64,000 nucleotides of DNA from positions 96,766-160,765 of IMG/VR virus record IMGVR_UViG_3300037475_000032. One strand, given 5' to 3'. The stretch comes from a virus. The notes beneath the pieces are model-generated. The model was not told where the DNA came from. It searched no databases and saw only the letters and a program-made list of their open reading frames with translations. Position 1 is the first letter of the stretch, and each line of letters starts with the position of its first letter. The position numbers and the translations under genes were made by a program. Below are positions 129-55,481 of this stretch, in pieces.

Positions 129-2168
129 ATGAGCGACTTTGGTGGAGTATTCGAGGTTCTTGCATCAGACGACTCACAGGCTCGTCTTGCATCCCGCAGA
201 GCCCTCGTCCTTTCAGAATCACGCATCAACGAGCGTCTAGGCAGCTTCCTTGGCTCATCCAAGACCGCAGACGAGTTCGACGCTCGTCTCTCCTACGTCG
301 AGGATGACTTCAAGGGGATCATTGCTGTAGCGTGTGAGGAGGTCGGCCACGGCAACGCCGAGGCCATCTACGCATCCCTCAAGGCTCATTACCGCCCAGC
401 GGTACAAACTCGTACCGCTTCCGTGGTACACGAGGCCCGCAAGCCCAAGATGTGCCCGTACCACTCGGAGGTCGTGGACATCTCGCTTAGCGCCGGAGAC
501 CCGAAGGCCGGTTACGATGTCATGCAGTCACACGCATGGGGCGGCAACCACTGCCAGGGTGACTGGGAGGGCAAGTGCAACTTCAAGCGCGAGATGGTCA
601 CTCAGTCATTCTGGGATGACCGCCAGAAGGCTCTTGATGACCAGAAGGCTGAGCGTCTACAGGCACAGCCCGATAACCCGGTCCCTGAGGGCGTTGATAC
701 GCCAACCGAGGACATCACCCCTTCCGAGTCCACGGAGCCTATTGGAGACGCCGGAGAGGGCTCTGATAGCAACGTTGTTGAGTTCCCCTCACCAGTGGAT
801 GGCGCACCCGACATCGAGGTGCCTATCGCTGTTGCTGCCTCCGTCCAGGATTGGCAGCGTCACGCAGGACTCATCAAGATGGCACTCACCCGCAAGGACT
901 ACAACCTGCTTGCCGGTGCCATCAAGAGTGCCCCCATCAATAACCACGCCGAGGTTGCGGGGCACTTTGCCGATCATCTAGCCGACACCAACGAGCGCTT
1001 TGATCGTGACCGTTTCGTCAACGCCGCAACGCCTGAAAGCAGCGGAGAAAGCGGGGTCGAGTCCAAGGTGGCTGATGCCGCTCCTTCCCAGGAGAGCTTT
1101 CCGTGCCAGCAGTGCGGAACGACCGTAAGAGGCTTCCACGGGCAGGGAAACGGTGAGTGCCCTAACTGCGGCACCGCTCACCTCACAAACGGGCAGCGTG
1201 CCTCTAAGGACTACAACCCGTCTGACCAAAGCGACGACTCCAACAAGAGCGTTCCATGCCCCGAGTGCGGAGGCGACGGCAAGACCAATGGCGGGAAGAA
1301 GTGCCCCCGCTGCAAGGGTCAGGGCCACGTCAACGACTGGGGACCTAGCACCCTAGACGCCGTTAGCAGCCACACGGCTGTCATTGCCGGTGACAAGAAG
1401 TGGATACAGAAAGCCGTCAAGAAGCCGGGCGAGCTTCACAAGGATCTAGGCGTTCCTGAGGGAGAGAAGATTCCCGAGGAGAAGCTAGAGGAGGCCGAGC
1501 ACAGTGACGACCCTAAGGTTCGTGAGCGTGCTCAGTTTGCCGAGAACGTCAAGGGCCTTGGAAAGGGCAAGAAGTCAGCGCTTGTTGAGCCAGCTAGTGG
1601 CAGCGGTGAGGATAATCTTACCGCGCATGAGCGCCAGTTGATTCAGGAAGGAAGGGCCAAGATCGGTCCAAATGGCATCTTCCAGTTGATAAACCCGGAC
1701 ATGCACACCCCTCCCGGCAAAGAGGCAAAGGTAGCTGATAACGGTAGCGGGAATACTGGCCTTGGTGGTCCTGAGCCTAAGATGGACAAGGCGCTCTGGA
1801 CGCCCAAGAACGTTAAGAAGATCGAGGTCCCGAGCGACGAACATCCTACCAAGGAGAAGGACCCCATCCAGCCTATCAAGGCGGTTAACGATGATCCGCT
1901 TGAGGAGATCGGGGAGAAGACAACTGAGCGCGTGGACCTGCCAGAGGCAGGCATCAACCTCGATGACTCTGGTTTCGCAGGCAACAACCAGGAGCAGGCA
2001 CCCGGCACTAAGACGTGGACGGGCACCGATGGACTGGCCGATCCTGTTACCACACAGGCTTTCGCTAAGGCCGACGACGTAGACATTAACCCGCTTCGTC
2101 CGCTTCTCAATGACGGTATTGCCGGATTTGTTCCAGCATCGGTCATTGATCGTGTTACAGTAAGTTAG
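129..2168 (+). CDS. Modular head-associated polyprotein (Zn fingers, TRKDY...FDRDRF module, KKWIQKAVKKPGELH module)
   Basis: 679 aa; modules separated by KTA/RTA/RHA/KMA/KVA/HTA/KSA motifs; several CxxC pairs; lies just upstream of the portal. Confidence 0.65.
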   Translation: MSDFGGVFEVLASDDSQARLASRRALVLSESRINERLGSFLGSSKTADEFDARLSYVEDDFKGIIAVACEEVGHGNAEAIYASLKAHYRPAVQTRTASVVHEARKPKMCPYHSEVVDISLSAGDPKAGYDVMQSHAWGGNHCQGDWEGKCNFKREMVTQSFWDDRQKALDDQKAERLQAQPDNPVPEGVDTPTEDITPSESTEPIGDAGEGSDSNVVEFPSPVDGAPDIEVPIAVAASVQDWQRHAGLIKMALTRKDYNLLAGAIKSAPINNHAEVAGHFADHLADTNERFDRDRFVNAATPESSGESGVESKVADAAPSQESFPCQQCGTTVRGFHGQGNGECPNCGTAHLTNGQRASKDYNPSDQSDDSNKSVPCPECGGDGKTNGGKKCPRCKGQGHVNDWGPSTLDAVSSHTAVIAGDKKWIQKAVKKPGELHKDLGVPEGEKIPEEKLEEAEHSDDPKVRERAQFAENVKGLGKGKKSALVEPASGSGEDNLTAHERQLIQEGRAKIGPNGIFQLINPDMHTPPGKEAKVADNGSGNTGLGGPEPKMDKALWTPKNVKKIEVPSDEHPTKEKDPIQPIKAVNDDPLEEIGEKTTERVDLPEAGINLDDSGFAGNNQEQAPGTKTWTGTDGLADPVTTQAFAKADDVDINPLRPLLNDGIAGFVPASVIDRVTVS

Positions 2169-2204
2169 GTATGGCTCCTAGCTGGGAGCAATCAAGGAGA
2201 GTAG

Positions 2205-2471
2205 ATGAGCAGAGTTACCGATCTGATCCATCCAGACGACATCCGCAACGGGCGTGTACGACCGCCCAATCACATTGCGAACGTCGTCCTTACTCGTTCA
2301 CCCGCAAACGAGTACAACTACCTCAAGGAAAACTTCCCTGAGATCATTCCCTTCGTTGCCGAAGGTGAGGATATTCCACAGGATGTCGTGGAGGCCATGC
2401 TAGCCCGCCTTGAGGGCGATGAAAAGGACAACAAAGCCGCTTCAACCCAGTCAGTAAGTAGTGATGGCTAG
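2205..2471 (+). CDS. Hypothetical protein
   Basis: AAGGAG RBS; stop overlaps the portal start. Confidence 0.7.
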   Translation: MSRVTDLIHPDDIRNGRVRPPNHIANVVLTRSPANEYNYLKENFPEIIPFVAEGEDIPQDVVEAMLARLEGDEKDNKAASTQSVSSDG

Positions 2472-5070
2472 CTCAAGCTCACGACTAGACGCAGATCTCG
2501 CAAGGCTACGCCGCAACGGTCTAGTTTACACGCGCCATCCAGCCCGTGCGTCAAGCACGTACGAGGGTGCCGTCAAGGCATCACGCGACATGCACGAAGC
2601 CGCAGGTACGGATCTGCGCAACATGTCTATGCGCCTTGGCCGTCCGATCACGGAGGCTAACTACGACTCTCCTGAGGTGCAGCGCATCATGGGTGAGAAC
2701 AACGCTCTCACTCAGGCGATGGGAAGCAAGCGCATCGCCTACAAGAAGATGCAGCGTCAGTCGTCCTTGGCTCCGTCGTCACCGATGGGCGGCGATGTCT
2801 ACAATGCCATCCCTCGCTTCTACGACCCGCTTGAGTACTGGGACCTAGCAGGTATCCCCTGGAACGTCGCGGACGAGGGACATCGCCACAAGCTCCATAA
2901 GTGGATGCGTCTCTACTACGCGACCCACTACCTTGTCCCAATCCTCATCGACATCTTTACCCGCTTCCCCCTCGTCGGGATGGAACTTGAGTGCAAGGAC
3001 CCGAAGCTCAAGGAGATCTACGAGAACATCTTCCTCGACAACCTCAACTACGAAGACTTCCTCGTTGCCCTTGGGCGCGAGTTCTGGCTTTGTGGTGAGG
3101 CTTTCCCACTCGGCTCCTTTGACGAGGATTTGGGTGTCTGGGAGCACGAGGAGCTTATCAACCCCGAGGACGTTGTAATCAACAACTTTCCGCTGCTCAA
3201 CACGCAGCAGTTGAAGATCGTCCCGCCCGACTATCTCCGCCGCATCGCTCAGACTAAGAGCCCTGCTCGTGAGTGGTACATGCTGCAAGAGAACTACGAG
3301 GAGTTGATCCCGTACCTTCTCAAGGGCGAGCACATCCCGATCTCGCCAGTCATGTTCCGACAGGTCGGCAACAAGCTCAATCACTGGGACGACCACGGCA
3401 CGCCGATTCTCCTTCGCGGTCTCCGCACGCTTCTCCACGAGGAGAAGCTACTAGCATCCCAGGACGCCATTGCCGAGCGTCTGTACAGCCCCTTCTTGCT
3501 CGCCAAGCTCGGCATCATGGACATGGGAGACGGGCTCCCGCCGTGGCTTCCCGGACCTGACGAGCTTGAGTCCGTACGTGACGATTTGGACATCGCTCTG
3601 TCGAGTGACTTCCGCGTCATGGTTCACCACTTCGGCCTTGACCTTACCTCCGTATTCGGGCGCGAGCAGATGCCTCGACTGGGAGACGATTTCGACCGCA
3701 TCGAACGTCGTCTCATGCAGGTGTTTGGCGTTAACCCCTCTCTGCTCTCGGCAGGCACCAACTCACAGCCCTATGCTAGCTCGGCGCTACAAGCCGAGTT
3801 CATGAACCAGATCCTTCGCACGTTCCAGAAGATGCTCAAGTTGCACTTTAAGGAACGTGCTCTTATCGTGGCCGAGGCACAGGGCCACCAGGAATACGAG
3901 CGCAAGGGTCAGACGCGCATCCCGGTCTTCGAGCGCATCGTTGTGTTCGATGAGGAAGGCAATAAGCAGATCAAGGAGGTTCCGAAGCTGCTTGTACCCG
4001 ATCTCAAGTTTGCCACATTCGATCTTCGTGACGAGGCCACAGAGCGTCAGTTCCTCCAGTCACTACGCGGACTCGGAGTCCCGATTCCTGACGACAAGCT
4101 CATGGTCGGCATCGACTGGAAGATGAAGGATGTCATCGAAGACTACAACCAGGAGCTTAAGACCAAGACCATCGCACAGCAGCGAGCCAAGATGGAGACC
4201 TACATTGCACTCACGGTGCAGGGTCTTCCGGTGCCGCTCGACTTGAAGGCAGAGTGCGAGTCCGTCCTTGTCCACGGCGCAGGAGCCGGTGGAGGTGCCC
4301 CACAGGGCGCTATGGAAGGCGGAGGCGGCATGGGCGGAGCACCGCCCCCAGGCGGAGGGGGAGCAGCCCCAGGAGGACCCCCTGGAGGCCCAGGAGGCGG
4401 TCCTGGGGGCTCACCTATCGTTATGCCTGGCGCACCCCCTGGATTGGGCGGAGGACCCGGTACGGTGCCTCCAGGCGGAGGACCGCCCCCAATCACAGGT
4501 ATGCAGCCTGGACCGGCTGGCACAGTACCACAAGTCTCGAACGAGAGACGACCAGGACTTACCTACAACACGAGCACATCTCGTGAGCGATTTGCTCCCA
4601 AGGAGGGAACAGCGCTTGCGGAGTTCATGGGCGAGCACCCGGACTTGGGTGTCCCGTTCACTGACTACGTGACCGACCATAACTCATCCGACCGTGATGC
4701 TGGAGAGATCGATCAGCTTGACCGTGACGAGATCGAGAGACTTCACTCGGAGTGGCCGGAGCACGCAGGCACCTACGCTCAGAGGGTTGCAGGTGAGATT
4801 GCGCAAAGAGTTTCCGCACTTGTAGAGGCAGAGACAAGTGAAGCTGCTATAGTCGCCGACGAGGAGACAGACGATGGTGAATTCGTTCTTGGTGGTAACC
4901 AGGAACTAACAAAGGATGCAAGCGGTAATGAGATCATCGTGGAGTCACCTCACAAGCGTCGAGTGAAGATCGAGGCAGAGTCGAAGAAGCGCTACTCAAT
5001 AGTAGATCCACTAGCCCCTGAACTAGAAGAGGAAACCGACAGTGAATCAGAATCAAAGCCTGCTAGATAA
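2464..5070 (+). CDS. Portal protein with Gly/Pro-rich and acidic C-terminal extension
   Basis: YYATHYLVPILIDIFTRFP, EFWLCGEAFP, GTPILLRGLRTL, LAKLG, VFGVNPSLLSAG...YASSAL resemble portals of large actinobacterial myoviruses. Confidence 0.75.
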   Translation: MASSSSRLDADLARLRRNGLVYTRHPARASSTYEGAVKASRDMHEAAGTDLRNMSMRLGRPITEANYDSPEVQRIMGENNALTQAMGSKRIAYKKMQRQSSLAPSSPMGGDVYNAIPRFYDPLEYWDLAGIPWNVADEGHRHKLHKWMRLYYATHYLVPILIDIFTRFPLVGMELECKDPKLKEIYENIFLDNLNYEDFLVALGREFWLCGEAFPLGSFDEDLGVWEHEELINPEDVVINNFPLLNTQQLKIVPPDYLRRIAQTKSPAREWYMLQENYEELIPYLLKGEHIPISPVMFRQVGNKLNHWDDHGTPILLRGLRTLLHEEKLLASQDAIAERLYSPFLLAKLGIMDMGDGLPPWLPGPDELESVRDDLDIALSSDFRVMVHHFGLDLTSVFGREQMPRLGDDFDRIERRLMQVFGVNPSLLSAGTNSQPYASSALQAEFMNQILRTFQKMLKLHFKERALIVAEAQGHQEYERKGQTRIPVFERIVVFDEEGNKQIKEVPKLLVPDLKFATFDLRDEATERQFLQSLRGLGVPIPDDKLMVGIDWKMKDVIEDYNQELKTKTIAQQRAKMETYIALTVQGLPVPLDLKAECESVLVHGAGAGGGAPQGAMEGGGGMGGAPPPGGGGAAPGGPPGGPGGGPGGSPIVMPGAPPGLGGGPGTVPPGGGPPPITGMQPGPAGTVPQVSNERRPGLTYNTSTSRERFAPKEGTALAEFMGEHPDLGVPFTDYVTDHNSSDRDAGEIDQLDRDEIERLHSEWPEHAGTYAQRVAGEIAQRVSALVEAETSEAAIVADEETDDGEFVLGGNQELTKDASGNEIIVESPHKRRVKIEAESKKRYSIVDPLAPELEEETDSESESKPAR

Positions 5071-6355
5071 CGAGCCGATCTTCACCTTCGTCAAGGAGCA
5101 GATCGAGAATGGTGAAACCAACGTTTCGACTGCAAAGGCCGTCGAAGAGACCTTCGATTTTCCCACAACTGACGACTCGATCCGACGCTTCCGTGCTCGC
5201 CACGGTCTAGGGATTCCGACGAAGGACAAGGCAGGTGTGAAGGTAGAAGGGGACGAGGCGGTTGTTACTACACCAGCACGTCCCTACCCTCACATGGATG
5301 ACCCGGACACCATGCTCCGTGAGCGTGGCCTTGACCCGGAGAAGTGGAGCATCGAGGGCGCGACCGTTAACGAGTGGGATGGGCCGCAGTCGGGAGGTAC
5401 GACCGTTACCTACCACCAGGCCAAGCTAGTACTCAAGCGCAAGAAGCCTGAGTGCAGCGTTCTTCCGGCACGCTCAGAGGGATGGGTTGCGCCTAAGCGT
5501 ACCCCACGCGATCCGGGCAAGCCGCAGTTGATCGTCGTCACGGGCGACCAGCAGGCACCCTTCCATGACGAGGCCCTACACGCGGCCTTCTGCTCGTGGC
5601 TCGCTGAGAACCAGCCCGACCAGGGCGTCTTGCTCGGAGACACCATTGACCTGCCCGATATCTCCCGTCACCGTCTTGACCCCGAGAACACCGCCATCGT
5701 CAACGAGTGCATCCAGTCGGGATACGATGTCATCCGTGACTACGTGACATCCTCTGCGGATACCGAGTGGCAGATGCTTGAAGGTAACCACGACGAGCGC
5801 CTACGCAACATCCTTCTCGACAAGCCGAGTGTGCGTCCCCTCTACGGGGTCAAGCAGGCTGATACGGCTGAGGAAGACGGCGTACCCGTCCTTGCTGTGC
5901 CTCACTTGCTCCGCTTGGACGAGCTTGGAGTGAAGCACGTTAGCCCGCAAGGAGCTTACGACCTTGGACAGATTAACCTTGGGAACAAGCTCGCAGTACG
6001 ACACGGCTGGATCGCCCGTCAGGGCAGCGGGGTATCGGCGCTGGCAACCCTGGAGCACTTGGGGTACAGTGTCATCGTCGGCCACACTCATCGTCAGTCG
6101 ATCATCTACAAGACGACTCACGACATCGACGGTGCAATCACGACCCTCACCGCTGCCGAAGCAGGGTGCATGTGTCGAGTCAACCAACAGCCGAATTCGG
6201 ATGGTCGCAAGTGGCCGAACTTCACTCCGTTGCCTGATTGGCAGCAGGGATTCTCCACCGTGACTCTTCACCCGAATGGCTTCTTCCGAATCGAGAACGC
6301 AACCTTTGTAAATGGATCGCTCCTTTGGCGCGATCAGTGCTACACCGCCCGATAG
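5042..6355 (+). CDS. Calcineurin-like metallophosphoesterase with N-terminal HTH-like domain
   Basis: GDQQAPFHD, LLGDTID, GNHDER, HG, GHTH motifs. Confidence 0.85.
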   Translation: MNQNQSLLDNEPIFTFVKEQIENGETNVSTAKAVEETFDFPTTDDSIRRFRARHGLGIPTKDKAGVKVEGDEAVVTTPARPYPHMDDPDTMLRERGLDPEKWSIEGATVNEWDGPQSGGTTVTYHQAKLVLKRKKPECSVLPARSEGWVAPKRTPRDPGKPQLIVVTGDQQAPFHDEALHAAFCSWLAENQPDQGVLLGDTIDLPDISRHRLDPENTAIVNECIQSGYDVIRDYVTSSADTEWQMLEGNHDERLRNILLDKPSVRPLYGVKQADTAEEDGVPVLAVPHLLRLDELGVKHVSPQGAYDLGQINLGNKLAVRHGWIARQGSGVSALATLEHLGYSVIVGHTHRQSIIYKTTHDIDGAITTLTAAEAGCMCRVNQQPNSDGRKWPNFTPLPDWQQGFSTVTLHPNGFFRIENATFVNGSLLWRDQCYTAR

Positions 6356-11444: not shown

Positions 11445-14400
11445 ATGTATATGTGGGACCCGAACAGCATCAGTCAGGATCAGTTGCACGAATACCGCAA
11501 CGCCGCTGAATCGGCATGGGGCGATGACACACGTCATCCTGACTTCGTAGGGCACCCAGACCCAAGTGCGGGCCAGTGCTACGTCACGTCCAAGTGGCTC
11601 ACGGGCGAGCTTGGCGGTCATGTTGGGTTGAAGAATGGTCATTACTTCTGGGTCTCACCGGACAAGAGCCACGTCATTGATCTGACCGGCGATCAGTTCT
11701 CTAGTCCACCACCTTCGGGCAGGATGAACTTCCTGGACGGCCAGCCCGTGGATTCAGAGGACGAAGCCTATGAGCCCGAGACACGCGGATGGCGACCAGG
11801 ACCCATCATGTTCAAGCGTGCTAATCACCCGCTCTACAAGGGATTCAGGATCAAGGCCGATCCTCAGCCTCCGCAGGATCAGAGAGATTGGGAAGACCTG
11901 GAACAGTCACCTCGCATCAACGACCGTCTCCAGCGCTTCACTCGTCGTGCGAACGCTGCTCTCACCAATCCCACGAGTCGCACAGCCGATCTCATGGGAA
12001 TCGGGAACCCGATGAGTGAACCGCAGGCAGAAGAGGATCTGAACCAGCGTTACCTTCACGATACAATGAGTGATCTGCAAATGACGCAGGAACCAATCGA
12101 CCGAGAGTACAAGTTCTTCTATGGACACGGACAACTACACGTATCACCCGTTCATTCTCACGACGAACTCCGAGATCACTCTGGGACATCCCCTGACGAG
12201 AACGGACCAATCGCCGTGGGTTACGTTCATGTTCACGGAGGAGATGCTGTTTGGTCTATTGAGACTAACGTTGCCGCTCGCGGACTCGTTCGCGTCCTTA
12301 AGGACTACAGCAAGACTGTGGGTTGGAAATGGAACGGAGTGGTTGGAGGCGACGGAGCACCCATCCATGATGACTTCGGCGCTACGAAGTCTATGTGGTA
12401 CAAGGCCAACGCTGATGGAGAGGTACAGATCGCAGATGGACCTTTCCGAGGAGCCTCCCGCATCGACATCGTTGGCAGGACCGCCCATTATGCTCGATCC
12501 GCGTCTACCAGCAGTTATGGCGATGCTCTCAGAGAATGGGCCGACGACTTCGGATACCGCCTAGCCGAGTACCCAGGCGGCACGGACATGACCGACCGCA
12601 CAAAGAACTGGGAGGACTTGGAGCTTCACAACAACTCCGACCCCGAATGGGACCCGGAGAAGGCATACGACGGAGCGCCTATTGGTCCTCTCACATGCGG
12701 CACATGCGGCTTCGAGGCACCTGACTTCAATACCCTCATCCTCCATCGCAGACTGCACGAGGGAGAGGACGAAGACCGCATCCAGGATGGTCACTTCCCG
12801 ACGCTCAACGACCGTGACGATACGCTACCGCTTAGGCGCAGGAACGTCAACCCTACGGCGTCACCTCTTGCCTCTTTCCGCGAAGCATCAGTGGTGGATG
12901 GCTTCGACCTGTACGCGAGCCTGTGGGGATACGACCGTGACGAGGGATTGCGCTTCTACGGTGGTTACCTGAATGGTCAACTTCTCGGCTACGGGGTCGT
13001 GCGTCCCGGCGATGATGGAGCCGAGGTCGTCATGATCCACTCATCCATCCCCAACGTCGGCATCGGTACGGTACTCGCTGAGAAGATCAAGCAGCACTAC
13101 CCGGTTCTGACCACGCACGCCGATAGTCCCGAGGGCGAACGCCTTGCCAAGCGCATGGGGATGGTCAATGTCGAGGGTCAGCTATACAAGTGGGCCGCAG
13201 GCGAAGAACCGAAGGACATGATCCAGGCCCCCGTCCCGTTTATCTACGACATCCAGCAAGACCACATCACCACGGGTCATCCGGGCATGAAGACATCGGA
13301 CATCATGGGCCAGTTCACGCCCGGTGGTATAGTTGAGGGCTACTACGAGCCGGGCGGCAAGGTGGTCATCAACACGTCCACCAACATGCCGTACAGCACG
13401 TACCACATGATGCAGCTATGGTATTGGACGCACCCACAAATGCAAATCGTCGGCCTTGAACTAGAAGACCAGCAGGGCAAGAGGCAGAAGCTAGCGGCTA
13501 CTGAGATCGGCCCCTACCTCAAGACGCTCGTGGGAACCGACGCCGCTGCATGGAACGCCTACCAGGCGCTACGCAATGCAGGCGGGAAGGTCTATGCCGT
13601 AGGTGGCGCAGTACGCGATGCTCTGCTTGGCAAGGACCCCAAGGATATTGACCTGATGGTCTCCGGCGTTCCGCCCGAGCAGGTCTCTCATGTCCTTGAA
13701 CAGCTTCCTGGCCGCGTAGACTTGACTGGTAAGCGCTTCGGTGTCTACCGCTACAAGACAAAGGGTCAAGAGGTCGAGATTGCTCTGCCACGCGAGGACA
13801 CCTACGATGGTGAGCGTCGCGGTCAGGGCAAGATCACCGTTGATCCTAGCCTTCCGGTTGAGGATGACCTAAGGCGTCGTGACTTTACTGTCAACAGCAT
13901 GGCCGTGGATCTTGACACAGGTAAGCTCATCGACCCATACGGAGGCGAGAAGGATGCCGAGTCCCACACGCTTAGAACCACTCACCCTTCGTCCTTCGAG
14001 GAGGACCCAACTCGCCTTGTACGTGCGCTTGTGGCTTCTTCCCGCCACGGTCTGGTTCCAGACGAGAGGACCCGTCAGGAGATGGCAGAGAACGCATCGC
14101 GCCTCGACCGTGAGTCCCCCGATGCCCTTAAGCAGCAGCTAGACAAGCTGCTTGAAAGCCCCAATCCGGCAGGGGCACTCAGACTAGCCCATGACACAGG
14201 TGTCCTGCGTCATCTATTCCCTGAGGTCGATGCGAACTTCGACTACGATCAGAACAACACGCATCACTCATACTCGCTGGGTGAGCACTCACTGAACGTG
14301 CTCGACAACGCGAGTCGTCTGACTACGGACCCAGATCTTCGTCTCGCTGCCCTGCTCCACGATCAGGGCAAGCCGGACTCGGCATGGGTAGACCCGGAGA

Positions 14401-14936
14401 AGGGCACGACTCACTACTACGAAAAGTTCATCGACGGCCAGCCTGTAGGAGCCGATCACGCACAGGTGGGAGCCGACATGGCCGAGAAGCGCCTGCGCGA
14501 GACCTACAACTTCCCGGTGGCTCGCATCCGTCGTGTGCGTGAACTGATTGAACACCACATGTTCCCGGCCTTCTCGTCACCCAAGGGCGCACGCAAGTTC
14601 CTCAACCGTGTAGGCGACCACGCTGACGATCTCCTTACGCTGCGCGAAGCCGACATGACCGGCAAGGGGCAGAGCGAGGAGGAAGTCGCTGAAAGGACCA
14701 GCGCCGATAGGATGCGCAATCTCGTGGAGCAGGCCCGTCAGGCAGGCGCACCCACAGATCAGTCGTCCCTCAGTCTCAACGGCAACGACATTGTTGGCAT
14801 GGGAGTGAAGCCCGGACCACAGGTCGGGCAGATCCTCCGCCAGTTGACCAATGATGTGGTTGAGGAACCGCAGTTGAACGACAGAGACGCCCTCACTCAG
14901 CGAGCACAGGAGTACATCAATGCACTTCCAGCATAG
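11445..14936 (+). CDS. Polyprotein: YunG-like domain, repeat modules, C2H2 finger, GNAT, CCA-adding tRNA nucleotidyltransferase + HD
   Basis: AGQCYVTS...HYFW...IDLTGDQF; CGTC-x12-HRRLH; NVGIGT acetyl-CoA loop; VGGAVRDALLG...KDIDL, RRDFTVNSMA, EDPTRLVR, LLHDQGK; linkers RTA/RLA/REA/KWA/KLA. Confidence 0.85.
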   Translation: MYMWDPNSISQDQLHEYRNAAESAWGDDTRHPDFVGHPDPSAGQCYVTSKWLTGELGGHVGLKNGHYFWVSPDKSHVIDLTGDQFSSPPPSGRMNFLDGQPVDSEDEAYEPETRGWRPGPIMFKRANHPLYKGFRIKADPQPPQDQRDWEDLEQSPRINDRLQRFTRRANAALTNPTSRTADLMGIGNPMSEPQAEEDLNQRYLHDTMSDLQMTQEPIDREYKFFYGHGQLHVSPVHSHDELRDHSGTSPDENGPIAVGYVHVHGGDAVWSIETNVAARGLVRVLKDYSKTVGWKWNGVVGGDGAPIHDDFGATKSMWYKANADGEVQIADGPFRGASRIDIVGRTAHYARSASTSSYGDALREWADDFGYRLAEYPGGTDMTDRTKNWEDLELHNNSDPEWDPEKAYDGAPIGPLTCGTCGFEAPDFNTLILHRRLHEGEDEDRIQDGHFPTLNDRDDTLPLRRRNVNPTASPLASFREASVVDGFDLYASLWGYDRDEGLRFYGGYLNGQLLGYGVVRPGDDGAEVVMIHSSIPNVGIGTVLAEKIKQHYPVLTTHADSPEGERLAKRMGMVNVEGQLYKWAAGEEPKDMIQAPVPFIYDIQQDHITTGHPGMKTSDIMGQFTPGGIVEGYYEPGGKVVINTSTNMPYSTYHMMQLWYWTHPQMQIVGLELEDQQGKRQKLAATEIGPYLKTLVGTDAAAWNAYQALRNAGGKVYAVGGAVRDALLGKDPKDIDLMVSGVPPEQVSHVLEQLPGRVDLTGKRFGVYRYKTKGQEVEIALPREDTYDGERRGQGKITVDPSLPVEDDLRRRDFTVNSMAVDLDTGKLIDPYGGEKDAESHTLRTTHPSSFEEDPTRLVRALVASSRHGLVPDERTRQEMAENASRLDRESPDALKQQLDKLLESPNPAGALRLAHDTGVLRHLFPEVDANFDYDQNNTHHSYSLGEHSLNVLDNASRLTTDPDLRLAALLHDQGKPDSAWVDPEKGTTHYYEKFIDGQPVGADHAQVGADMAEKRLRETYNFPVARIRRVRELIEHHMFPAFSSPKGARKFLNRVGDHADDLLTLREADMTGKGQSEEEVAERTSADRMRNLVEQARQAGAPTDQSSLSLNGNDIVGMGVKPGPQVGQILRQLTNDVVEEPQLNDRDALTQRAQEYINALPA

Positions 14937-14953: not shown

Positions 14954-15348
14954 ATGTGGATAAAGATGACAGACCAAAGAAGTGAGCCTATCCTAATTCC
15001 TCGTCCGCTCAAGCCGGACGTTCTCTGCTTTGGTATCAAGCGAGCCGGACAGACAGTCATCTTCTACAACGAGGATCGTGAGATCCCCGACGCACCCCAT
15101 CCTGACACGATCCCCAAGTTGCCTCAGAGCATCTTCATCATGGAGAACGAATGATGCCCAAGCTGGAGTTTCACGATTACATCGCTATGTGCGAAGATCC
15201 AGAGACGGGTCAGAAAGCCACTTTTCGCTTCCGAGCAAGCTCAGATGCACACGCCGATAGGGAGGCTCGTGATGGCTGGTTTGGCCTTCTAGCACCGCCT
15301 CCTAAGGAGCGCTGGGAAGCATTGAAGGTAGACGTAGCTAGGGTGTAA
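14954..15348 (+). CDS. Two small hypothetical genes (14954-15154, 15151-15348)
   Basis: Coupled ORFs filling the intergenic space. Confidence 0.5.
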
Positions 15349-15356
15349 TACGTGCA

Positions 15357-16466
15357 ATGCCTGTCGCAAATATCCTCGATCCGATCCACGATACCCTAGA
15401 CGCCCGTGTGTGGGATGATCCGGGCGCAGACAAGCCCGTATTGAAGCCCAAGCACCTCCACTGGATCAAGAAGACGATCTACGATGCGCTTGAAAAGGCG
15501 GGCTACACGGATGTCGAGAAGTGGCTGCATCTCGTACTGACCGGTTCGCTTACAACGTACCAGTATTCGGACGAGTCCGACTGTGACGTTTCACTCTTTG
15601 TGGACACGAAGGTCTTCCCCGAGTGGTCGAGGGCAGAGATGATCGGCGTCATGGTAGGAGAGGTCGATGGGACCACGCTACCGGGCACACCTCACCCGAT
15701 GCAGAACTTCGTTGTGCCCTCACACATCAAGCCCCATGACCTTTACAAGAAGGGCTTGCGCTCAGGCTACGACCTAGATACCCAGACGTGGGTCGAGCCG
15801 CCTGAGCATGATCGTGTCCATGACGTAGAGGCTGAGGAGAACGGCTTCTATGCCTACGCACTCCAGATGGCTGACAAGATGGAGCGCCTGTTGAAGTACG
15901 AGCCCGAGAAGGCAGCCGAGTTCTGGCACGCGATCCACAATCGCCGCAGGCGCGACATGGCATCAGGCAAGGGTGACTTCGCTGAGTCGAACATCGTCTA
16001 CAAGTTTCTTGCCAATCGAGGTCTATTCCCGGCCATCTCGGAGGCCACAGGCGAGTACATCGCACATAAGCTAGGAGCTAATAGTGACCCTTCTATTAGC
16101 CCTGAGCTAATGCAGACACATGTCCTCTACAACCCGTTCAATCCCGAGAAGTTTCATCCTCCCGCTCCAGGGCACGAAAAGTCCATGCCGTGGGTCTATG
16201 ACCCTGATACCAAGACCGTTCACCTTGGTCCTCCGCGAGCATACCACTGGGAGTTGATCGAAAGAACACCGGAGCTACGAGGGCAGTATGAAGGAGCATG
16301 GACGAAGCCCGCTATGGGACAGGCGGGGAATATCCATGGGGCGATGTCGTGGCCCGGCCGTAACACTGACTTCATGGGTGAGCAGGTTGACCCCGAGACC
16401 AAGAGATCTATCAATCAAGCACTAGGCGCACCCGAAGAAGATGAGCACGAGTGGAACTTCGCGTAA
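15357..16466 (+). CDS. Pol-beta-superfamily nucleotidyltransferase + C-terminal repeat module
   Basis: LTGSLTTYQYSDESDCDV (GS...DxD); after HKLGA a PWVYDPDTKTVHLGPPRAYH...WNF module. Confidence 0.75.
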   Translation: MPVANILDPIHDTLDARVWDDPGADKPVLKPKHLHWIKKTIYDALEKAGYTDVEKWLHLVLTGSLTTYQYSDESDCDVSLFVDTKVFPEWSRAEMIGVMVGEVDGTTLPGTPHPMQNFVVPSHIKPHDLYKKGLRSGYDLDTQTWVEPPEHDRVHDVEAEENGFYAYALQMADKMERLLKYEPEKAAEFWHAIHNRRRRDMASGKGDFAESNIVYKFLANRGLFPAISEATGEYIAHKLGANSDPSISPELMQTHVLYNPFNPEKFHPPAPGHEKSMPWVYDPDTKTVHLGPPRAYHWELIERTPELRGQYEGAWTKPAMGQAGNIHGAMSWPGRNTDFMGEQVDPETKRSINQALGAPEEDEHEWNFA

Positions 16467-20486: not shown

Positions 20487-20684
20487 GTGAATGGTCGGAA
20501 CAAGGGTCTACGAAAGATCATCAAGGAACTGGAAGCCCAAGGGTGGAGAGTAGAGAAGGGTCCGCACTGGAAGCTATTCTCCCCTAACGGCAAGTCAATC
20601 GTGGTGGTCTCTTCGTCCCCAAAGAGCACTGAGACGCACAAGGTTCGAGCGGATTGCGTGAGAGCCGGAGCAGTCTTCAACTGA
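20487..20684 (+). CDS. HicA-like protein
   Basis: LRKIIKELEAQGWRVEKGPHWKLFSPNG fits the HicA dsRBD-like pattern with G-x-H. Confidence 0.65.
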   Translation: MNGRNKGLRKIIKELEAQGWRVEKGPHWKLFSPNGKSIVVVSSSPKSTETHKVRADCVRAGAVFN

Positions 20685-20686
20685 GC

Positions 20687-20712
20687 CAACGGCACCTTTC
20701 GGGGTGCCGTTG
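20687..20712 (+). terminator. Stem-loop, probable terminator
   Basis: CAACGGCACC-T-TTCG-G-GGTGCCGTTG directly after a stop codon. Confidence 0.65.
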
Positions 20713-20728
20713 CTACGAGGTAATAGAT

Positions 20729-22220: not shown

Positions 22221-22236
22221 CGAACCGTAATAGGCG

Positions 22237-26349: not shown

Positions 26350-26604
26350 ATGGTCTTCCACCGCATCGACACCATACGCTATCGCGTCCTTGATGATGAG
26401 GACGGGAAGCTCCTTGGCACCGTCAACAAGGAAACATTCAGGACGTACCCTGATGGCCTTGAGGGCGATGTCAAGGAGGGGTGCTTCTGGTTGGCGCACA
26501 GTCGGGGATACGTTCAGGTCCCTGGCAAGTTCGCCAGCCGGAAGGCAGCGGCGGAAGCGTTGATCGATAGTCAGACGAAACCAGCGGCCAAGCTAGCTGC
26601 TTGA
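26350..26604 (+). CDS. Hypothetical protein
   Basis: Ends ...FASRKAAAEAL. Confidence 0.6.
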   Translation: MVFHRIDTIRYRVLDDEDGKLLGTVNKETFRTYPDGLEGDVKEGCFWLAHSRGYVQVPGKFASRKAAAEALIDSQTKPAAKLAA

Positions 26605-26629
26605 CATTGGTCTCGACATAGGCTACACT
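26601..26629 (+). promoter_or_regulatory. SigA-type promoter of the rII operon
   Basis: TTGACA-17-TACACT; AAGGAG RBS downstream. Confidence 0.8.
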
Positions 26630-33120: not shown

Positions 33121-33150
33121 ACGCCCAAGGCGCGAGCAGTAATAGGTAGT

Positions 33151-34173: not shown

Positions 34174-34596
34174 ATGGGATGGGAATGGCTAGGGGGCTTG
34201 TTTGAGGGTGAGGGGCACATTGCTCTGACAGGGCGTAACTCTGTCTCCATCTGCATCAACATGACAGATGAGGACGTGATTCGCAAGGCTCATGAAGTGG
34301 CAGGTGGCATAGTTTCAGGGCCTTACAGTCAAGGAAGACATAAGCCTCTTTGGCGATGGGGAGTCAATCGCTCAGAGGATGTGTTGGTCGTGTTGCAAGA
34401 GATCGAGCCATACCTTGGGGAACGACGCCGAGCCCGTGTTCTGGAAGCATACAAGCGCTTAAAAGGTGTGAGACGCAATGGTTACTGCAAGCGTGGACAT
34501 CCCATGTCGGGGGACAATCTGTACGTGAGCCCAAAGGGCCAGCGTCACTGTCGCACTTGCTCCCGTGACCGCGACCACCGAAGGATCAAGACCTAG
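34174..34596 (+). mobile_element. Free-standing LAGLIDADG-type homing endonuclease with C-terminal Zn finger
   Basis: WLGGLFEGEG; CKRGH...RHCRTC; lower GC than flanks. Confidence 0.75.
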
Positions 34597-34644
34597 CCTA
34601 AGCCGTCTGGAGGCGCTTCTCCGGCGACGTAAAAGAAAAGACGA

Positions 34645-49389: not shown

Positions 49390-50057
49390 TAGAAAGAGGA
49401 AGACCTAGATAGTGATTGTGCTGTGATGATGCGTAGGCGACGAGGGATGACGTTTAGTGGTGCCCCCCCAGCCGCAAAGTTGATCTGCCCGAAGTCGGAT
49501 GATTTGCTTTTTGTTTCCATCCCTACATTGCCGTTCGTGTACGTGGAGTCGGCGATGGCTTTCAATTCTTCCCACGCTCCACCTGCACCGATTTTGTGCC
49601 AAGAGATGACTTTACCGGATACGGCACTGATGCCAAGCAGATCTTTGGCTGCGATTTTCAGATTGGCTGTTTCGCCAAGTGTCGTGGCCGTGCCACCCGT
49701 GACTCTCTCGGAGATGATCTTGAAGTTGGCTTCCGCCCCAAGCGATTCCGCACGTAGCCTGTAGCCATTATGGGATGTGGGGTTGAGACAGGCCCAGAGA
49801 GCGAACCACTCTTCTTTCAAGTTTTCGGGAAACAACGGTTCCCATGACACACCCGGTTCGGTGAATTCAGCAGGCGTCCAGTAGCAGCCGTTCAGTTCGA
49901 CGGCCGCCGTAGCAGACGTGTACCCATCCGCTGATCCGTGAATCTCTCCTGCGTTTACGCACCAGGAGAGGATTTTCCACTTGCCACCTTCGTTGATCGG
50001 GTTTTCAGCAGTCGAGCCGTTCAGGGCGGCTAGGATCGATGTGCTCGGAAAGGCCAT
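49389..50057 (-). CDS. Lectin/ConA-like virion protein, paralog C
   Basis: YWTPAEF, WFALW, HNGYRL, DSTYTNGNVG. Confidence 0.65.
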   Translation of the reverse strand: MAFPSTSILAALNGSTAENPINEGGKWKILSWCVNAGEIHGSADGYTSATAAVELNGCYWTPAEFTEPGVSWEPLFPENLKEEWFALWACLNPTSHNGYRLRAESLGAEANFKIISERVTGGTATTLGETANLKIAAKDLLGISAVSGKVISWHKIGAGGAWEELKAIADSTYTNGNVGMETKSKSSDFGQINFAAGGAPLNVIPRRLRIITAQSLSRSSSF

Positions 50058-52540
50058 TACGCCTTACCTGCGTTCTCCTGCAACTGCTCCCATACTTCCG
50101 GTGTGGATAGATGAAGTGACTGAGTAGCGTGTTGCATGATGGTCTGTCCGGGTTCACCCTGGACATGCTCACCCGTCTGGGGATGGGTGAACCAAGGTGC
50201 TCGTACCTGAGCCGCAATCTTGGAGATCGTTGGCACGTACTCGCCGTAGGGGATCTGGTTCTTCGGGTAGTTGGGCGCGATGTTCTGATCCCAGCTTTCC
50301 CCCACTTGATCCCTGAGCGGCTTGGTGTTTTCCCACCAGTCAGGTAGCTTAGACTCCTGCCCCTGTAGGCCAGGGTTGAGCTTGGCAGCCCAGTCAATGG
50401 ACTCGTGCGGGAGCGGGTCGAGCACCTTGAGCCCAGAGTGATCTTGATGCGATCCTTCGCCCGTGCGTCGATTGTCCCACATGCCCCACTGGAAGGCTCC
50501 TAGCGGAACGTGGCTGTAGCCCGCAGCGTCACGCCCGGTCTGTAGCTCGCGCTCGAACTTGAAGTAGTCACGGTTGTTCATCTCCTTGTCGTAGTTGTGG
50601 CCCAACACAGCCATCATGTGAACGTCGATGGTTGCCAACTGCGACGTGACCGGCTGGAGCAACAGCCAAGCAAACGAGCAGACCTTCGGACCCACTCCCG
50701 ATACTCCCATCTGGAGAACGGCTGCGCGGAAGTGGTGGCCCGTTCCGTCGTGTTCATGCACGTCTTCCAGGGCAGCCTTGAGGATCGCGTCTGCGTGCGA
50801 CGAGATCTGTGAGATGGCCTTGAGGTGGCTTCCCATCCATGCCCCATAGCGACCTGCCCTCACAGGCTCCTGTGGGCCTTCCTCCGGGGCGTCGAATAGC
50901 TGGTCCTGGGAAACCCTCGCTGCGAAGTCCAACTGCGGCTGAAAGTCCTTGATGTACGTCTGGAGACGTTTCGCTAGAGCCTCGTTTGCACGTCGCTCGA
51001 TTTCGTCCGTCGAGCGTTGCTTCTTCTTGTCCACGTCTTCGCGCATGATGCGATTCTGCTCCTCAGTCTGCCAGTCGAAGACGAGATCCTTTGCGCGTTG
51101 TGCAGCGGCCGGATAACCCGCCTGCGGGTTCATCTGGAAGATGATGTTCTCAAACGGCTTGAGGAACTTGGCATACGGCATGTGCGCGTAGCGCTCACCC
51201 TCGCCGAAGCGAGCGACGTTCCAGGATTGACGCTTCTGCTCCAGCGTGTTCCAGTAGGTAGCCGGATCGGTGGCTCCTGCCGGGACACTCTGTAGATCCT
51301 GGTAGTGGATGGTGTTCCAGCGCAAGTCCTTCCTGGGGCTCAGGAGCACGGCCCTAAAGGCGTTCACGATGGCCTGCTTCATGCGTTCGTAGTCGGGCTT
51401 GCCCTCACCCGTCGTCAACTGCGCCCACTCGGTATCGATGAGTCGAGCGTTGTCCACGGTCGCTTGCGCCTGTAGAGGATCGCCGTGGTCAAGGTAGGCG
51501 TTAGGTGACTGCGCCTGTACCCCCGATGACCACTGAGCGTTCGGGTCCGTGTTCCCTTCTACACTCCCAGCGTGTATTCCCGTACTCGGGAAGTAGCCAC
51601 TCGGTTCGGTCTGGAACATGTTACCCACCCCATAGTCCGAGTATTCGTGGGGGGGCACGTTATCCTTCGGCAACCCGACGCCAGGTGACTGCGGCAGACC
51701 GGGCATAGCAACCGGGGCGACAGACTGTGAAGGGTGAACACCTTGGGCGGCAGGACCGACACCCTCAGCGCTCTGTGCTGGTTCAGTGAACTGCGGGAAT
51801 AGCGCCACCTTCTGCGGCCCGAAGGCACGGTAGTAGGCGGCGTATCCGGTCTGCGCAATGCACTCCGTAAAGAGGGCCTTCTGAGCGTTTGCACTCAATA
51901 GCGGGAAGTGAGCGGCGCAGGCACGATTCTCGCCTTCCCAGCCGAAGTCACCTCCGCTGACGGCGTGTCCGAGAACATCGTGGACGGTGCGGAAGGCGAC
52001 GTTCTGCTCCGGGGTCCAGATAGGATGCTCAGAGTGTGCCCTAGAGACAACGAAGTGCTTGTGCTTGTGGATGTCTTCGGCCATCTCCTGAGCGTTCGCG
52101 TAGGGCTCGGGGTTGTCCGTGACCTCGATCTTGAGTTGTTTCGCCAAGACGGCCGCACGCTTCACCGAATCGTCGGCTAGCTCCTTAAAGGCTTGGGCGG
52201 CCTGCGGTTCGTACGTCGGAGCCGCTGCGTAGGCTTCGGCAATGGGCCTTAGCTGGTCCGTGAACGTGGTTTTCCACATCCCGACCTTCCACATCGCCGT
52301 CGTACGCATGTGGTTCTTGCGCGTGACTGCGATGAGCAGATTGGCAACAGCGGTCTTGTCTGTGTTGCCCGTCTTCTCTACCTCCTCGCCGTGCGGACTC
52401 TGAGCCGTGGCGACGAAGCACTCACGCTTGTTGTCCCAGCCGACCTTCTTGACACTCCAGCCAAGATCACCGATCTTGGTGTACAGTTCGGGAAGGGGAG
52501 TAGTTATGCCCTGAAAGGCGCTCGTGACATCGACCGGCAT
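50057..52540 (-). CDS. Polyprotein: FRTVHDVLGH metal-binding domain + HhH DNA-glycosylase-like domain + repeat module
   Basis: NVAFRTVHDVLGH...GE...ALFTE; GVGPKVCSF...ATIDVHM...YFKFE; linkers RTTA/RVS/KIA. Confidence 0.65.
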   Translation of the reverse strand: MPVDVTSAFQGITTPLPELYTKIGDLGWSVKKVGWDNKRECFVATAQSPHGEEVEKTGNTDKTAVANLLIAVTRKNHMRTTAMWKVGMWKTTFTDQLRPIAEAYAAAPTYEPQAAQAFKELADDSVKRAAVLAKQLKIEVTDNPEPYANAQEMAEDIHKHKHFVVSRAHSEHPIWTPEQNVAFRTVHDVLGHAVSGGDFGWEGENRACAAHFPLLSANAQKALFTECIAQTGYAAYYRAFGPQKVALFPQFTEPAQSAEGVGPAAQGVHPSQSVAPVAMPGLPQSPGVGLPKDNVPPHEYSDYGVGNMFQTEPSGYFPSTGIHAGSVEGNTDPNAQWSSGVQAQSPNAYLDHGDPLQAQATVDNARLIDTEWAQLTTGEGKPDYERMKQAIVNAFRAVLLSPRKDLRWNTIHYQDLQSVPAGATDPATYWNTLEQKRQSWNVARFGEGERYAHMPYAKFLKPFENIIFQMNPQAGYPAAAQRAKDLVFDWQTEEQNRIMREDVDKKKQRSTDEIERRANEALAKRLQTYIKDFQPQLDFAARVSQDQLFDAPEEGPQEPVRAGRYGAWMGSHLKAISQISSHADAILKAALEDVHEHDGTGHHFRAAVLQMGVSGVGPKVCSFAWLLLQPVTSQLATIDVHMMAVLGHNYDKEMNNRDYFKFERELQTGRDAAGYSHVPLGAFQWGMWDNRRTGEGSHQDHSGLKVLDPLPHESIDWAAKLNPGLQGQESKLPDWWENTKPLRDQVGESWDQNIAPNYPKNQIPYGEYVPTISKIAAQVRAPWFTHPQTGEHVQGEPGQTIMQHATQSLHLSTPEVWEQLQENAGKA

Positions 52541-52579
52541 CACCAGTTACTATACAGGATCGCCCCTGTTCTCTGCGGT

Positions 52580-53781: not shown

Positions 53782-53788
53782 GCCAGGT

Positions 53789-54223: not shown

Positions 54224-55040
54224 TAGCGATCCTCCCAGTAGTCGCGGTCCTCTTGGACTTCCTTCAACTCCTGTTGCAGATCCTTCACGTCTTGCTCGAC
54301 CTGTGAGCCAGCGGTCGAGCAGATGTCGAGGGAGAGGATGTTCTGGCCGGAGCCTAGCGGGTCACGATCCATTGCTCAGCACCTCCTCCATCGTAGCGTT
54401 CTTGAACAAGGGCTTGTAGCCAACGGGTCGGCGTTTAAACAGGCGCTTGTACCATGGCAGAGCATACCACGCGATCCACTCGCGTTCGCCCTCTACCTTC
54501 TCTGTGTGGTACTCCACTAGCTTGCGATCAACCTCTTCTATCGTGTCCGGGTCGCGGCTCAACAGGAGAGGGATTTTGACTACTCGGGCCGGTTCGAGCC
54601 AGTAGTCCTGCGTCGAGGATGCGTACCAGCGCCGACTCTTTGGCGCTTGGTGGTACGTCGTGACCCTAAGCAGGTGGTTCGAGTTCTGCGATGGCATTGC
54701 GGCACATGGTTCGGACGTAATCGGGATACGTGGCTGGGTCGCCCATGATGCCAGCGCCTTCGGCGATAGCCCTGCAAGTCTGGACGGCATCGGCGCAGCG
54801 AGCCATGGCGCTCCTGTAGCCGTGGTCGAACGCCTCGTAAGGCTGGATGGGACCTGCGGAGATGTCCTGCATCCCCAGGTCTTCCCAACACGCCTCTTTG
54901 TGGTTCTCTGGAAATCCGTCTCTGTCCATGTCAGTACCAGCTTGCAATGTCCTGAGCGCCGCACTTGCGACACCAACGTACACGGTAACTGAGTCCGAGA
55001 AGATTCTGAAAGCGCCGTGGGTCCCAAGCGCCCCAGTCAT
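54181..55040 (-). CDS. Several small hypothetical genes (54181-54372, ~54362-54670, ~54666-54929)
   Basis: Coupled minus-strand ORFs; exact starts uncertain. Confidence 0.45.
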
Positions 55041-55079
55041 GCCCCGACCACGTAGCGCACGCTAGCCACCGGAGCGGTC

Positions 55080-55481
55080 TCATAGATAGTCGCCCTCGCG
55101 TTGCGGCGGAACGTCTGTTGGCATCCCGTGATGACGGATATGCGGCAGAGGCTTGTGCGGCTGCTCGCCCTTGAGGGCAGCGATGACCTGCTTGATGACG
55201 AACGGGTCCTCCAGCTTCTTGTGATCGTCCGTCGTGATCCTGAATCCGCCCTGGATCTTGTAGGCATAGCCGTTCAGGCGGCCAGGGTGCGTGACTTCGG
55301 GGGCAAGCTCGTCGTGAGTCTTGGCCTCCGCACGCGACGTGTCCTCGTTGTGATGGACCGTGACGTGGCCGCTCTCGGGATCGAAGACCCAGAGCCAGTA
55401 GATCGGCCCGTCGTAGGGCTCGTGCAGGATCGCTGTGCGATGCGGCAGAAGCTCTTGGAAGTCTGGAGCAATGTCGCCCAT
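55080..55481 (-). CDS. Stand-alone copy of the repeat module
   Basis: HRTA, then WLWVFDPESGHVTVH...THDEL...GYAY. Confidence 0.6.
   Translation of the reverse strand: MGDIAPDFQELLPHRTAILHEPYDGPIYWLWVFDPESGHVTVHHNEDTSRAEAKTHDELAPEVTHPGRLNGYAYKIQGGFRITTDDHKKLEDPFVIKQVIAALKGEQPHKPLPHIRHHGMPTDVPPQREGDYL

Follow-up and report, generated by a model that had tools for sequence, protein, structure and literature searches.

A conserved basic-hydrophobic-alanine peptide at the module joints of scattered mosaic proteins of a soil phage and its possible link to the prohead protease

The 64-kb stretch of DNA analyzed here (the window, GC content ~58%) is the final stretch, genome positions 96766-160765, of the viral record IMGVR_UViG_3300037475_000032, which is a complete genome of 160,765 bp with direct terminal repeats and is described as that of a soil phage. 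Several long open reading frames (ORFs) scattered over the window, named below by their start positions, had been proposed in an initial annotation to encode polyproteins that are packaged into the head and cut at [K/R/H]-x-[A/S/G]. A narrower peptide, [KR]-[TVIL]-A followed by a small residue, is non-random and conserved at the joints between the modules of these proteins. ORFs 34645, 15357, 11445, 50057, and 129 would encode chains of enzyme and binding modules, such as 2H phosphoesterase, GNAT, nucleotidyltransferases, zinc ribbons, and a rare ~100-amino acid alpha/beta module, and would constitute one lineage-specific modular system. As the same peptide is packed into the protease-scaffold protein of the phage, it would most likely be the recognition site of that protease. 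That the carriers are cargo proteins cut by the prohead protease is the explanation favored here, albeit tentatively.

The ORFs named by the initial annotation exist as described, with an ambiguous start for ORF 20729/20654 and with ORFs 50057 and 55080 on the minus strand; all other window genes discussed are on the plus strand unless indicated otherwise, and coordinates are those of the window unless marked as genome positions. The motif as originally written is not enriched. In the 51,108 residues of the proteome it occurs 1515 times, that is, at 2.96% compared with 3.04% expected from composition. At about one copy per 33 residues, it would lie near any boundary anyway, so that the observation in its written form carries no weight of its own. 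The narrowing to [KR]-[ILVMTW]-A was derived from the joints, after ORFs 34645 and 11445 had been inspected; independent tests of the narrow motif are those on the scaffold, ORF 129, the proteins of the mycobacteriophage Pleione, and related phages only. The basic-hydrophobic-alanine peptide is conserved at the module joints of four different protein families, and, in each of four carriers, a 2H domain is preceded by a joint of the form [KR]-x-A(A).

The link to the capsid comes from a ranking of every protein of at least 150 amino acids by its content of [KR][ILVMTW]A relative to its own composition. The protease-scaffold protein (genome 13860) ranks first, with 11 sites compared with 1.9 expected (P 5e-6), followed by ORF 11445 (8 versus 2.5) and ORF 129 (6 versus 1.6). 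Ranks 5 to 8 are held by the 335-amino acid gene located before ORF 129 (4 versus 1.2), by ORF 34645 (6 versus 2.4), and by the head-cluster genes at genome 8510 (5 versus 1.8) and genome 12809 (2 versus 0.5). The scaffold enrichment is replicated, with conserved positions, in three related complete phages (10 versus 2.1, 8 versus 1.9, and 10 versus 1.7), where the scaffold again ranks first and the homologues of ORFs 129, 34645, 15357, 50057, and 11445 are in the top ten of ~105-118 proteins. In a 30-kb stretch of Pleione, [KR]-T-A-[GA] is found 14 times compared with 1.0 expected, the matches being concentrated in gp100 (5 sites, P 6e-7), gp91 (4 sites, P 1.4e-5), and gp99 (3 sites), with further ones in gp92 and gp85. 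As a control the motif was read in reverse: the whole proteome contains 150 forward and 153 reverse matches, while the scaffold contains 11 and 2, respectively. For the four-residue motif, the corresponding values are 4 and 0 for ORF 34645, and 4-6 and 0 for genome gene 8510, gp91, and gp99. This directional control excludes composition or helicity as the cause of the enrichment.

The protease-scaffold protein (777 amino acids, genome 13860-16193) matches the head maturation protease profile phrog_18299 (E 6.4e-19) at residues 97-260, which are followed by a long C-terminal part. With the gene in this position, the initial annotation was correct in placing the prohead protease outside the window. 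The protease domain is recognized through this PHROG profile only; Pfam and a sequence comparison with the PDB gave no match, and the NCBIfam search added nothing. Downstream of the gene are those for the cement protein (PF23968) and the major capsid protein (phrog_2522, 1.2e-93), the latter with 57% identity to Pleione gp102, so that the prohead protease is encoded beside the scaffold and major capsid genes. The N-terminus of the major capsid protein, R-[QF]-[AV]-[VK]-A-S, is kept in all five phages and is compatible with the motif, which is weak evidence. The portal protein (2461-5070; phrog_2833, E 3.7e-160) is ~40% identical to the portals of Bxz1-type (cluster C) mycobacteriophages, according to a tblastn search against 209 Mycobacterium phage records. 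Shared segments and positions connect ORF 129, ORF 20654, and the genome genes 8510 and 13860 with gp91, gp99, and gp100 of the Bxz1-type phages.

Among the carriers, the case for processing is strongest for ORF 129 (679 amino acids, 129-2168), which matches the 1237-amino acid profile phrog_2922 (E 3.1e-9). It lies between the portal gene and the 335-amino acid gene that follows the terminase, which is the place of gp91 in the syntenic region of Pleione, and contains zinc ribbons as well as a middle part that is variable and in places acidic. Its joint-type sites are RLAS (183-194), KTAD (261-272), RTAS (411-422), and KVAD (1065-1076 and 1728-1739). The form [KR][TVIL]A[GADS] is found five times in this protein, compared with 0.44 expected and one match in reverse. 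The RLAS site is present in all three related phages, and the homologues of ORF 129 rank second (G002) and fourth (G003) by motif content.

ORF 34645 and ORF 15357 provide a moderate case. ORF 34645 (34645-40401) encodes a mosaic protein of 1918 amino acids, which was analyzed by means of six homologues, a hidden Markov model (HMM) of its module, and AlphaFold. An N-terminal Cys motif is followed by a 2H phosphoesterase-like domain at residues 193-322, by acidic low-complexity stretches with W-x-hydrophobic motifs, and by a CxC...C...H motif at ~830-843; the C-terminal half contains six alpha/beta modules of ~100 amino acids (1029-1886) and one mobile domain of 120 amino acids (1526-1645). A public gene call begins this ORF at Val127 (1792 amino acids). 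Since the first 126 residues (34645-35022), including the Cys motif PHCGSCKM...CWGYG, are kept in all six homologues, translation more likely begins with the ATG at 34645. The joints are WRLAA (35194-35208), WRVAG (36547-36561), WDFNGSHRMGA (38008-38040), FTFSKVA (38371-38391), PRMSG (38827-38841), WDFNSKIA (39205-39228), PRTSQ (39583-39597), WSFAKVA (39961-39981), and WDFGN (40285-40299). The three strings quoted in the initial annotation are thus all present, namely, FTFSKVA at residue 1243, WDFNSKIA at residue 1521, and WSFAKVA at residue 1773.

The six homologues of ORF 34645 belong to metagenomic phages. Module order varies among them, with breaks directly after the Ala of the motif; residues 1526-1645 of ORF 34645, starting in ...WDFNSKIA|Q, correspond to residues 708-827 of P0003 and 590-709 of P0004. 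The joint consensus is W-x-F-(N/S)-...-[KR]-[IVL]-[AGS]. For 12 recurrent breakpoints the mean distance to a motif end is 6.9 residues, compared with 15.1 +/- 4.3 for random positions (P ~0.017), and in close relatives [KR]-x(1,2)-[AGS] follows W-x-F at 69% of the sites compared with 18% in control windows. In the AlphaFold model of residues 1400-1918, which rests on a shallow alignment of 11 sequences, the modules have a predicted local distance difference test score (pLDDT) of 76-89, and all three W-x-F joints lie in linkers with a pLDDT below 50. The view of W-x-F as the terminal strand of the module fold was accordingly rejected, with the reservation that the low-confidence linkers are those of a model with so shallow an alignment.

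The module HMM finds six copies in ORF 34645, a seventh at the end of ORF 15357, and partial ones in the genome genes 8510 and 23454. A profile search of 1.84 billion proteins returned only 27 relatives, mostly giant proteins of up to 4942 amino acids with many copies each. In these relatives W-x-F is enriched 5- to 8-fold, with the consensus W-x-F-x-[ST]-A, and several module proteins, including that of ORF 15357, terminate at or just past W-x-F. In a Foldseek search for the fold of the module, no match to the model of ORF 34645 reached E<=0.001 and only weak ADF-H/gelsolin-like rows appeared, the ESM Atlas yielded no usable match for it, and a megablast search of ORF 34645 against the phage collection was without match. 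In the search for related loci, the single-protein query returned none and the alignment query five. A related phage of 170 kb contains a short version of the giant protein (at least 704 amino acids; L012:9818-11929, plus strand) in the same place after a tail fiber gene, in the order 2H, 120-amino acid mobile domain, Cys motif, one module, WDFQSRLA, and cREC_REC receiver (PF20274, E 1.5e-11). In a related phage of 160 kb, two giant module proteins (at least 1758 and at least 1569 amino acids; L009:5260-9966, plus strand) are encoded in tandem beside a homologue of ORF 50057, the second of them with an intein-like insert (Cys...HNC).

ORF 15357 (369 amino acids, 15357-16466) shows a Pol-beta-type GS...DxD motif, read by eye, in its N-terminal part up to about residue 236. 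The joint ...GEYIAHKLGA (16065-16079) separates this nucleotidyltransferase part from the ~100-amino acid module (HMM match at residues 272-369), and the protein ends in ...EHEWNFA directly before the stop codon (16452-16463). In the related phage L007, an N-terminal part of the ORF 15357 type is fused in frame, past ...GEYIAKTAA, to a 2H domain like that of ORF 34645.

The case is weaker for ORFs 50057 and 11445. ORF 50057 (828 amino acids, 50057-52543, minus strand) belongs to a family of 206 homologues with 48-98% identity, a well-conserved core protein of ~830 amino acids of large phages. Some members hold inteins, others inserted 2H, GNAT, or DUF7701 modules. The hot spot at which modules are inserted in this family coincides with S-K-I-A-A (50210-50224) of ORF 50057; the inserts cluster at residues 766-780, directly past S-K-[VIT]-A, and some have the motif at either flank. 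As [KR][TVILM]A after the anchor, this site is found in 49% of the homologues compared with 11% of control windows. Overall, the family, with the homologues P0202, P0207, P0224, P0246, P0254, and P0264, has three hot spots for module inserts (residues ~210-300, 530-560, and 766-780), and inteins occur at several different positions.

ORF 11445 (1163 amino acids, 11445-14936; Pfam PolyA_pol 2.4e-26, HD 1.7e-9) is a fusion to a CCA-adding enzyme. It is composed of a YunG-like domain (residues 1-174), a linker, a domain at 219-375, a zinc finger in a linker (409-441), a GNAT domain (468-586), an alpha/beta module (589-684), and the CCA-adding enzyme with HD domain (688-1163), and with five folded domains plus the CCA enzyme it has the multidomain character of polyvalent proteins. 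In the AlphaFold model (68 sequences, pLDDT 79), RTA, RLA, KWA, and KLA stand at four of the five domain ends, the corresponding sites being RTAD (11979-11990), RLAE (12558-12569), KWAA (13188-13199), and KLAA (13488-13499). Four of the eight [KR]hA sites (h, hydrophobic) of the protein are at domain ends, which by a rough estimate is far above chance. The initial annotation had placed motifs at domain boundaries throughout; this holds for specific sites in ORFs 34645 and 11445 and fails for the loose motif, for ORF 20654, and for REA in ORF 11445, which lies inside the GNAT fold. At least 161 homologues of the N-terminal 700 residues were found, nearly all fused to a CCA-adding enzyme. In 120 aligned homologues the site is matched in 98/101 for RTA, 81/98 for KWA, and 108/110 for KLA (K in 112, A in 108). 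Stand-alone N-terminal units end exactly at ...HKVA (P0050, P0071, and P0078) or 2-5 residues past K-L-A.

Concerning the domain labels of the initial annotation, GNAT and CCA nucleotidyltransferase were confirmed, 2H received weak support, and the ADP-ribosyltransferase and glycosylase labels received none. The GNAT fold of ORF 11445 (residues 468-586) superimposes on 1y9k_A with a Z score of 13.7 and a root-mean-square deviation of 2.2 over 116 residues; more than 200 chains score Z >=8, and the Foldseek probability is 1.00. Since the wide structure search with the 700-residue model was dominated by GNAT, the other domains were barely tested by it. For the ORF 11445 model, a gelsolin fold, appearing in rows at a TM score of ~0.1 only, was not accepted. 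The first domain of ORF 11445 (11445-11966) matches Pfam YunG at E 2.3e-5, which is under the cut-off of that family. Its residues Cys45, His66, and Asp79 show no or hardly any variation among 68 aligned homologues, and it may be a Cys-His-Asp hydrolase. No peptidase family was matched in Pfam, PHROGs, or NCBIfam that would provide a built-in processing peptidase. Residues 193-322 of ORF 34645 match PF23474 (Acb1/2H) at E 2.9e-4 with 21 bits, under the cut-off of 27 bits; the relative in L012 reaches 32 bits, and HITLL and HITIA are visible in the ORF 34645 sequence. A 2H/Acb1-like domain is thus weakly supported. For an ADP-ribosyltransferase in the mobile domain (residues 1529-1645, AlphaFold pLDDT ~25-30), there was no Pfam or PDB sequence match, and for a DNA glycosylase in ORF 50057, there was no match in Pfam, NCBIfam, or named PHROGs, an HhH-like GVGPK being visible by eye only.

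Upstream sequences provide a second connection to the head genes. In the 30 nucleotides before gene starts, TAATA is enriched 32-fold, GTAAT 8.8-fold, and AGTAA 7.3-fold. Of the 16 genome copies of GTAATA, ten are at most 7 nucleotides from a predicted start. GTAATA(G), located 1-7 nucleotides before starts mostly of structural-region genes (e.g., window 33139-33145, 22227-22233, and the region of 55502-55508), is a candidate for a late promoter or leaderless-start element. The view that GTAA is merely the stop codon of the preceding gene was discarded, as it is at odds with the positions found at 33151 and at the portal gene. A late GTAA motif had been claimed for several of the carriers; it does precede ORFs 15357, 20729, 34645, and 50057, and it is missing from ORFs 129 and 11445. 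The 11-mer GGCGACGTAAA (34623-34633), 12 nucleotides upstream of the start of ORF 34645, has only one other copy in the genome, at genome 13843-13853, 7 nucleotides before the protease-scaffold gene. Likewise, the only other copy in 160.8 kb of the 10-mer GTAATACGTG (15345-15354), 3 nucleotides upstream of ORF 15357, is at genome 12797-12806, 3 nucleotides before the head-cluster gene 12809. GGTAATAG precedes the GTG at 20729 (ORF 20654/20729). The start context of ORF 50057, AGTAACTG-GTGATG, is of the same type as those of the portal gene and the 335-amino acid head-region gene, the common form being AGTAA(C/G)..GTGATG. These contexts support co-regulation of some carriers with head genes and suggest late timing of their expression. 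An rIIA-like gene (26665-28617) is preceded by a sigma-70-type promoter (TTGACA, spacer, TACACT; 26570-26664), unlike the starts of the GTAATA class.

ORF 20654/20729 (20654-21934, 426 or 401 amino acids; phrog_2940/30974, E ~1e-18) resembles part of Pleione gp99 in residues 118-217 (tblastn), contains a Cys/His motif, and is rich in Pro in its middle; for this ORF there is no case for processing. In ORF 55080 (133 amino acids, 55080-55481, minus strand), H-R-T-A-I (55428-55442) near the N-terminus is followed by alpha/beta-module-like sequence, as judged by eye only; no PHROG or Pfam match was obtained, and the module HMM did not find this ORF.

Several observations weigh against cargo proteins cut in the capsid. 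In each of the named ORFs the loose motif is within 1.4 standard deviations of the shuffled sequences, and the ranks of ORFs 34645 and 11445 are partly circular, as the narrow motif was refined on them. ORF 20654 lacks a joint-motif signal ([KR]hA 0 versus 0.8 expected), and the portal protein, the cement protein, and the body of the major capsid protein show no motif enrichment. For ORF 11445, the four-residue motif occurs three times forward and five times in reverse, that is, without directional bias; its KWA and KLA are ordered terminal beta-strands (pLDDT ~70-90), and the K-[LV]-A that its split homologues keep at their own C-terminus is also consistent with a simple domain terminus. Distant members of the module family have not retained the basic residue. 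CCA-adding and tRNA-related enzymes could equally work in the cytoplasm, and in the literature searched for the Bxz1-type lineage no virion proteomics, N-terminal, or cleavage data were found. The cargo interpretation of the initial annotation is partly supported: it gains from the conserved joints, the scaffold enrichment, and the upstream motif of head genes, and it loses with the loose motif, ORF 20654, and the direction in ORF 11445.

The main rival, a strong one above all for ORF 11445, sees in the joint peptide a structural or evolutionary feature only, that is, a last strand or linker at recombination points; the proteins would stay whole and serve RNA or tRNA processing and repair in the cytoplasm, with the scaffold enrichment being a separate matter. 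This is a real possibility, ranked behind processing in the prohead. It accommodates the natural K-[LV]-A ends of the split N-terminal units of ORF 11445, the natural W-x-F ends of ORF 15357 and several module proteins, the completion of the GNAT fold by KWA and the strand nature of KLA, the RNA-repair-type domain content (CCA enzyme, 2H, and cREC_REC in a relative), and the fact that ORF 11445 has neither directional bias nor an upstream late motif. What it leaves unexplained is that one peptide ends modules as unrelated as YunG-like, GNAT, nucleotidyltransferase, alpha/beta, and disordered acidic ones, that the directional enrichment peaks in the protease-scaffold of five phages, and that ORFs 34645 and 15357 share unique upstream words with head genes. 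Improbable is a cut in the cytoplasm by another protease, either the YunG-like domain of ORF 11445 or a host enzyme, of polyproteins that would not be packaged. The near-invariance of C45, H66, and D79 would suit such an enzyme, and self-processing by built-in peptidases has been proposed in the literature on polyvalent proteins (PMC5512222); yet Pfam matches this domain as YunG only, and below the cut-off, ORFs 34645, 129, and 50057 do not contain it, and the scaffold enrichment would be unaccounted for. Least probable of all is that the coincidences reflect chance and an after-the-fact choice of motif. It is true that the loose motif is at chance level, that the refined one was picked after inspection, and that several enrichments are only ~2-fold. 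Against this stand the P values for the scaffold, replicated in three phages, and for Pleione gp100 and gp91, the forward/reverse control, and a site kept in 108/110 homologues. With a replicated and directional enrichment, this explanation is largely refuted already.

In the favored scenario, the carriers would be late products that enter the prohead, are cleaved at the joints, which end in [KR]-[TVIL]-A plus a small residue and in ORF 34645 usually have W-x-F in front, and are delivered together with the DNA. Cleavage, the identity of the protease, packaging, and ejection are all parts of this proposal, as is a role of the products in RNA repair or counter-defense. Indirect hints at a presence of the carriers in proheads or virions are the upstream motif in common with head genes and the location of ORF 129 beside the portal gene. 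The domain set, comprising the CCA-adding enzyme with HD domain, GNAT, a weak 2H/Acb1-like match, and cREC_REC in the short relative, is typical of RNA repair, and a role in tRNA repair or counter-defense is plausible. A wider version of the proposal, which we regard as rather doubtful, is that the Bxz1-type lineage of large phages of actinobacteria has a new prohead-protease code, [KR]-[TVIL]-A-small, exploited by scattered genes as a plug-in system. Any module placed behind a joint, be it 2H, GNAT, nucleotidyltransferase, or CCA-adding enzyme, would then enter the capsid on a conserved carrier, be cut free, and be injected, so that the phage would arrive with a ready kit for RNA repair and counter-defense. 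W-x-F ahead of the joint could serve as a docking or recognition element.

Phage heads with processed internal proteins are well known. The prohead core of T4 contains the protease gp21, the scaffold gp22, the internal proteins IPI-III, and Alt, and a short motif marks the cleavage sites of many head and ejection proteins of the giant phages phiKZ and SPN3US (PMC5694885, PMC10052503, PMC9026906). In common with these systems, the scaffold of the present phage is rich in a short cleavage-type motif that returns in other proteins encoded near head genes, and transport of enzymes in the head, followed by their injection, is proposed. In contrast to them, the motif is [KR]-[TVIL]-A-small in place of L/I-x-E or A/S/G-x-E, protease and scaffold form one protein, the carriers are long mosaics in which joints are numerous, and an N-terminal capsid-targeting peptide was not identified. 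For polyvalent proteins of phages and conjugative elements, transfer together with the DNA and processing have been predicted (Iyer, Burroughs, Anand, de Souza, Aravind 2017, PMC5512222). The carriers resemble them in their very large size and in the shuffled order of GNAT, 2H, nucleotidyltransferase, and novel modules. They differ in that processing of polyvalent proteins is proposed to be mainly by built-in zincin-like peptidases, none of which was found here with Pfam, PHROGs, or NCBIfam; also, none of the Pfam families matched here corresponds to the joint motif, the W-x-F signature, or the ~100-amino acid module. The Bxz1-type proteins gp91, gp99, and gp100, for example of Pleione, concentrate the same [KR]-T-A-[GA] motif and are labeled as hypothetical or LysM proteins in the records of those phages; unlike in these phages, further motif-bearing carriers are spread here over 50 kb outside the head block. 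The herpesvirus protease assemblin, which forms a fusion with the scaffold, has the maturational and release sites (V/L/I)-x-A followed by S. The Ala before the presumed cut, the small residue after it, and the protease-scaffold fusion are shared with the phage, whereas the preferred basic residue two positions ahead of the Ala is not, and no match in Pfam or to PDB sequences assigns the assemblin fold to the phage protease.

Other genes of the window may be mentioned briefly. The gene after the portal gene (5042-6355) encodes a metallophosphoesterase-like protein (phrog_20266, E 1.1e-32) with an N-terminal part of 160 residues without match. A gene for an HNH endonuclease (34174-34596) is located between the tail-collar fiber gene (33151-34140) and ORF 34645. 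On the minus strand, a ThyX-like protein (PF02511, 1.4e-16) is encoded at 56848-58113 and a protein with a segment resembling glycosyl hydrolase family 26 (1.9e-7) at 60491-61744.

Even if the joints are not cut, they define a recombination joint for the shuffling of modules, together with a rare new family of ~100-amino acid modules. Should they be cut in the capsid, a first cleavage rule would be available for the capsid protease of a large and frequently isolated group of phages, namely, the cluster C mycobacteriophages with their relatives from soil; the unannotated giant head-region proteins of these phages would be explained, and tRNA and RNA repair enzymes would be deliverable as injected cargo. 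The peptide would then offer a simple sequence rule for spotting cargo modules in metagenomes.

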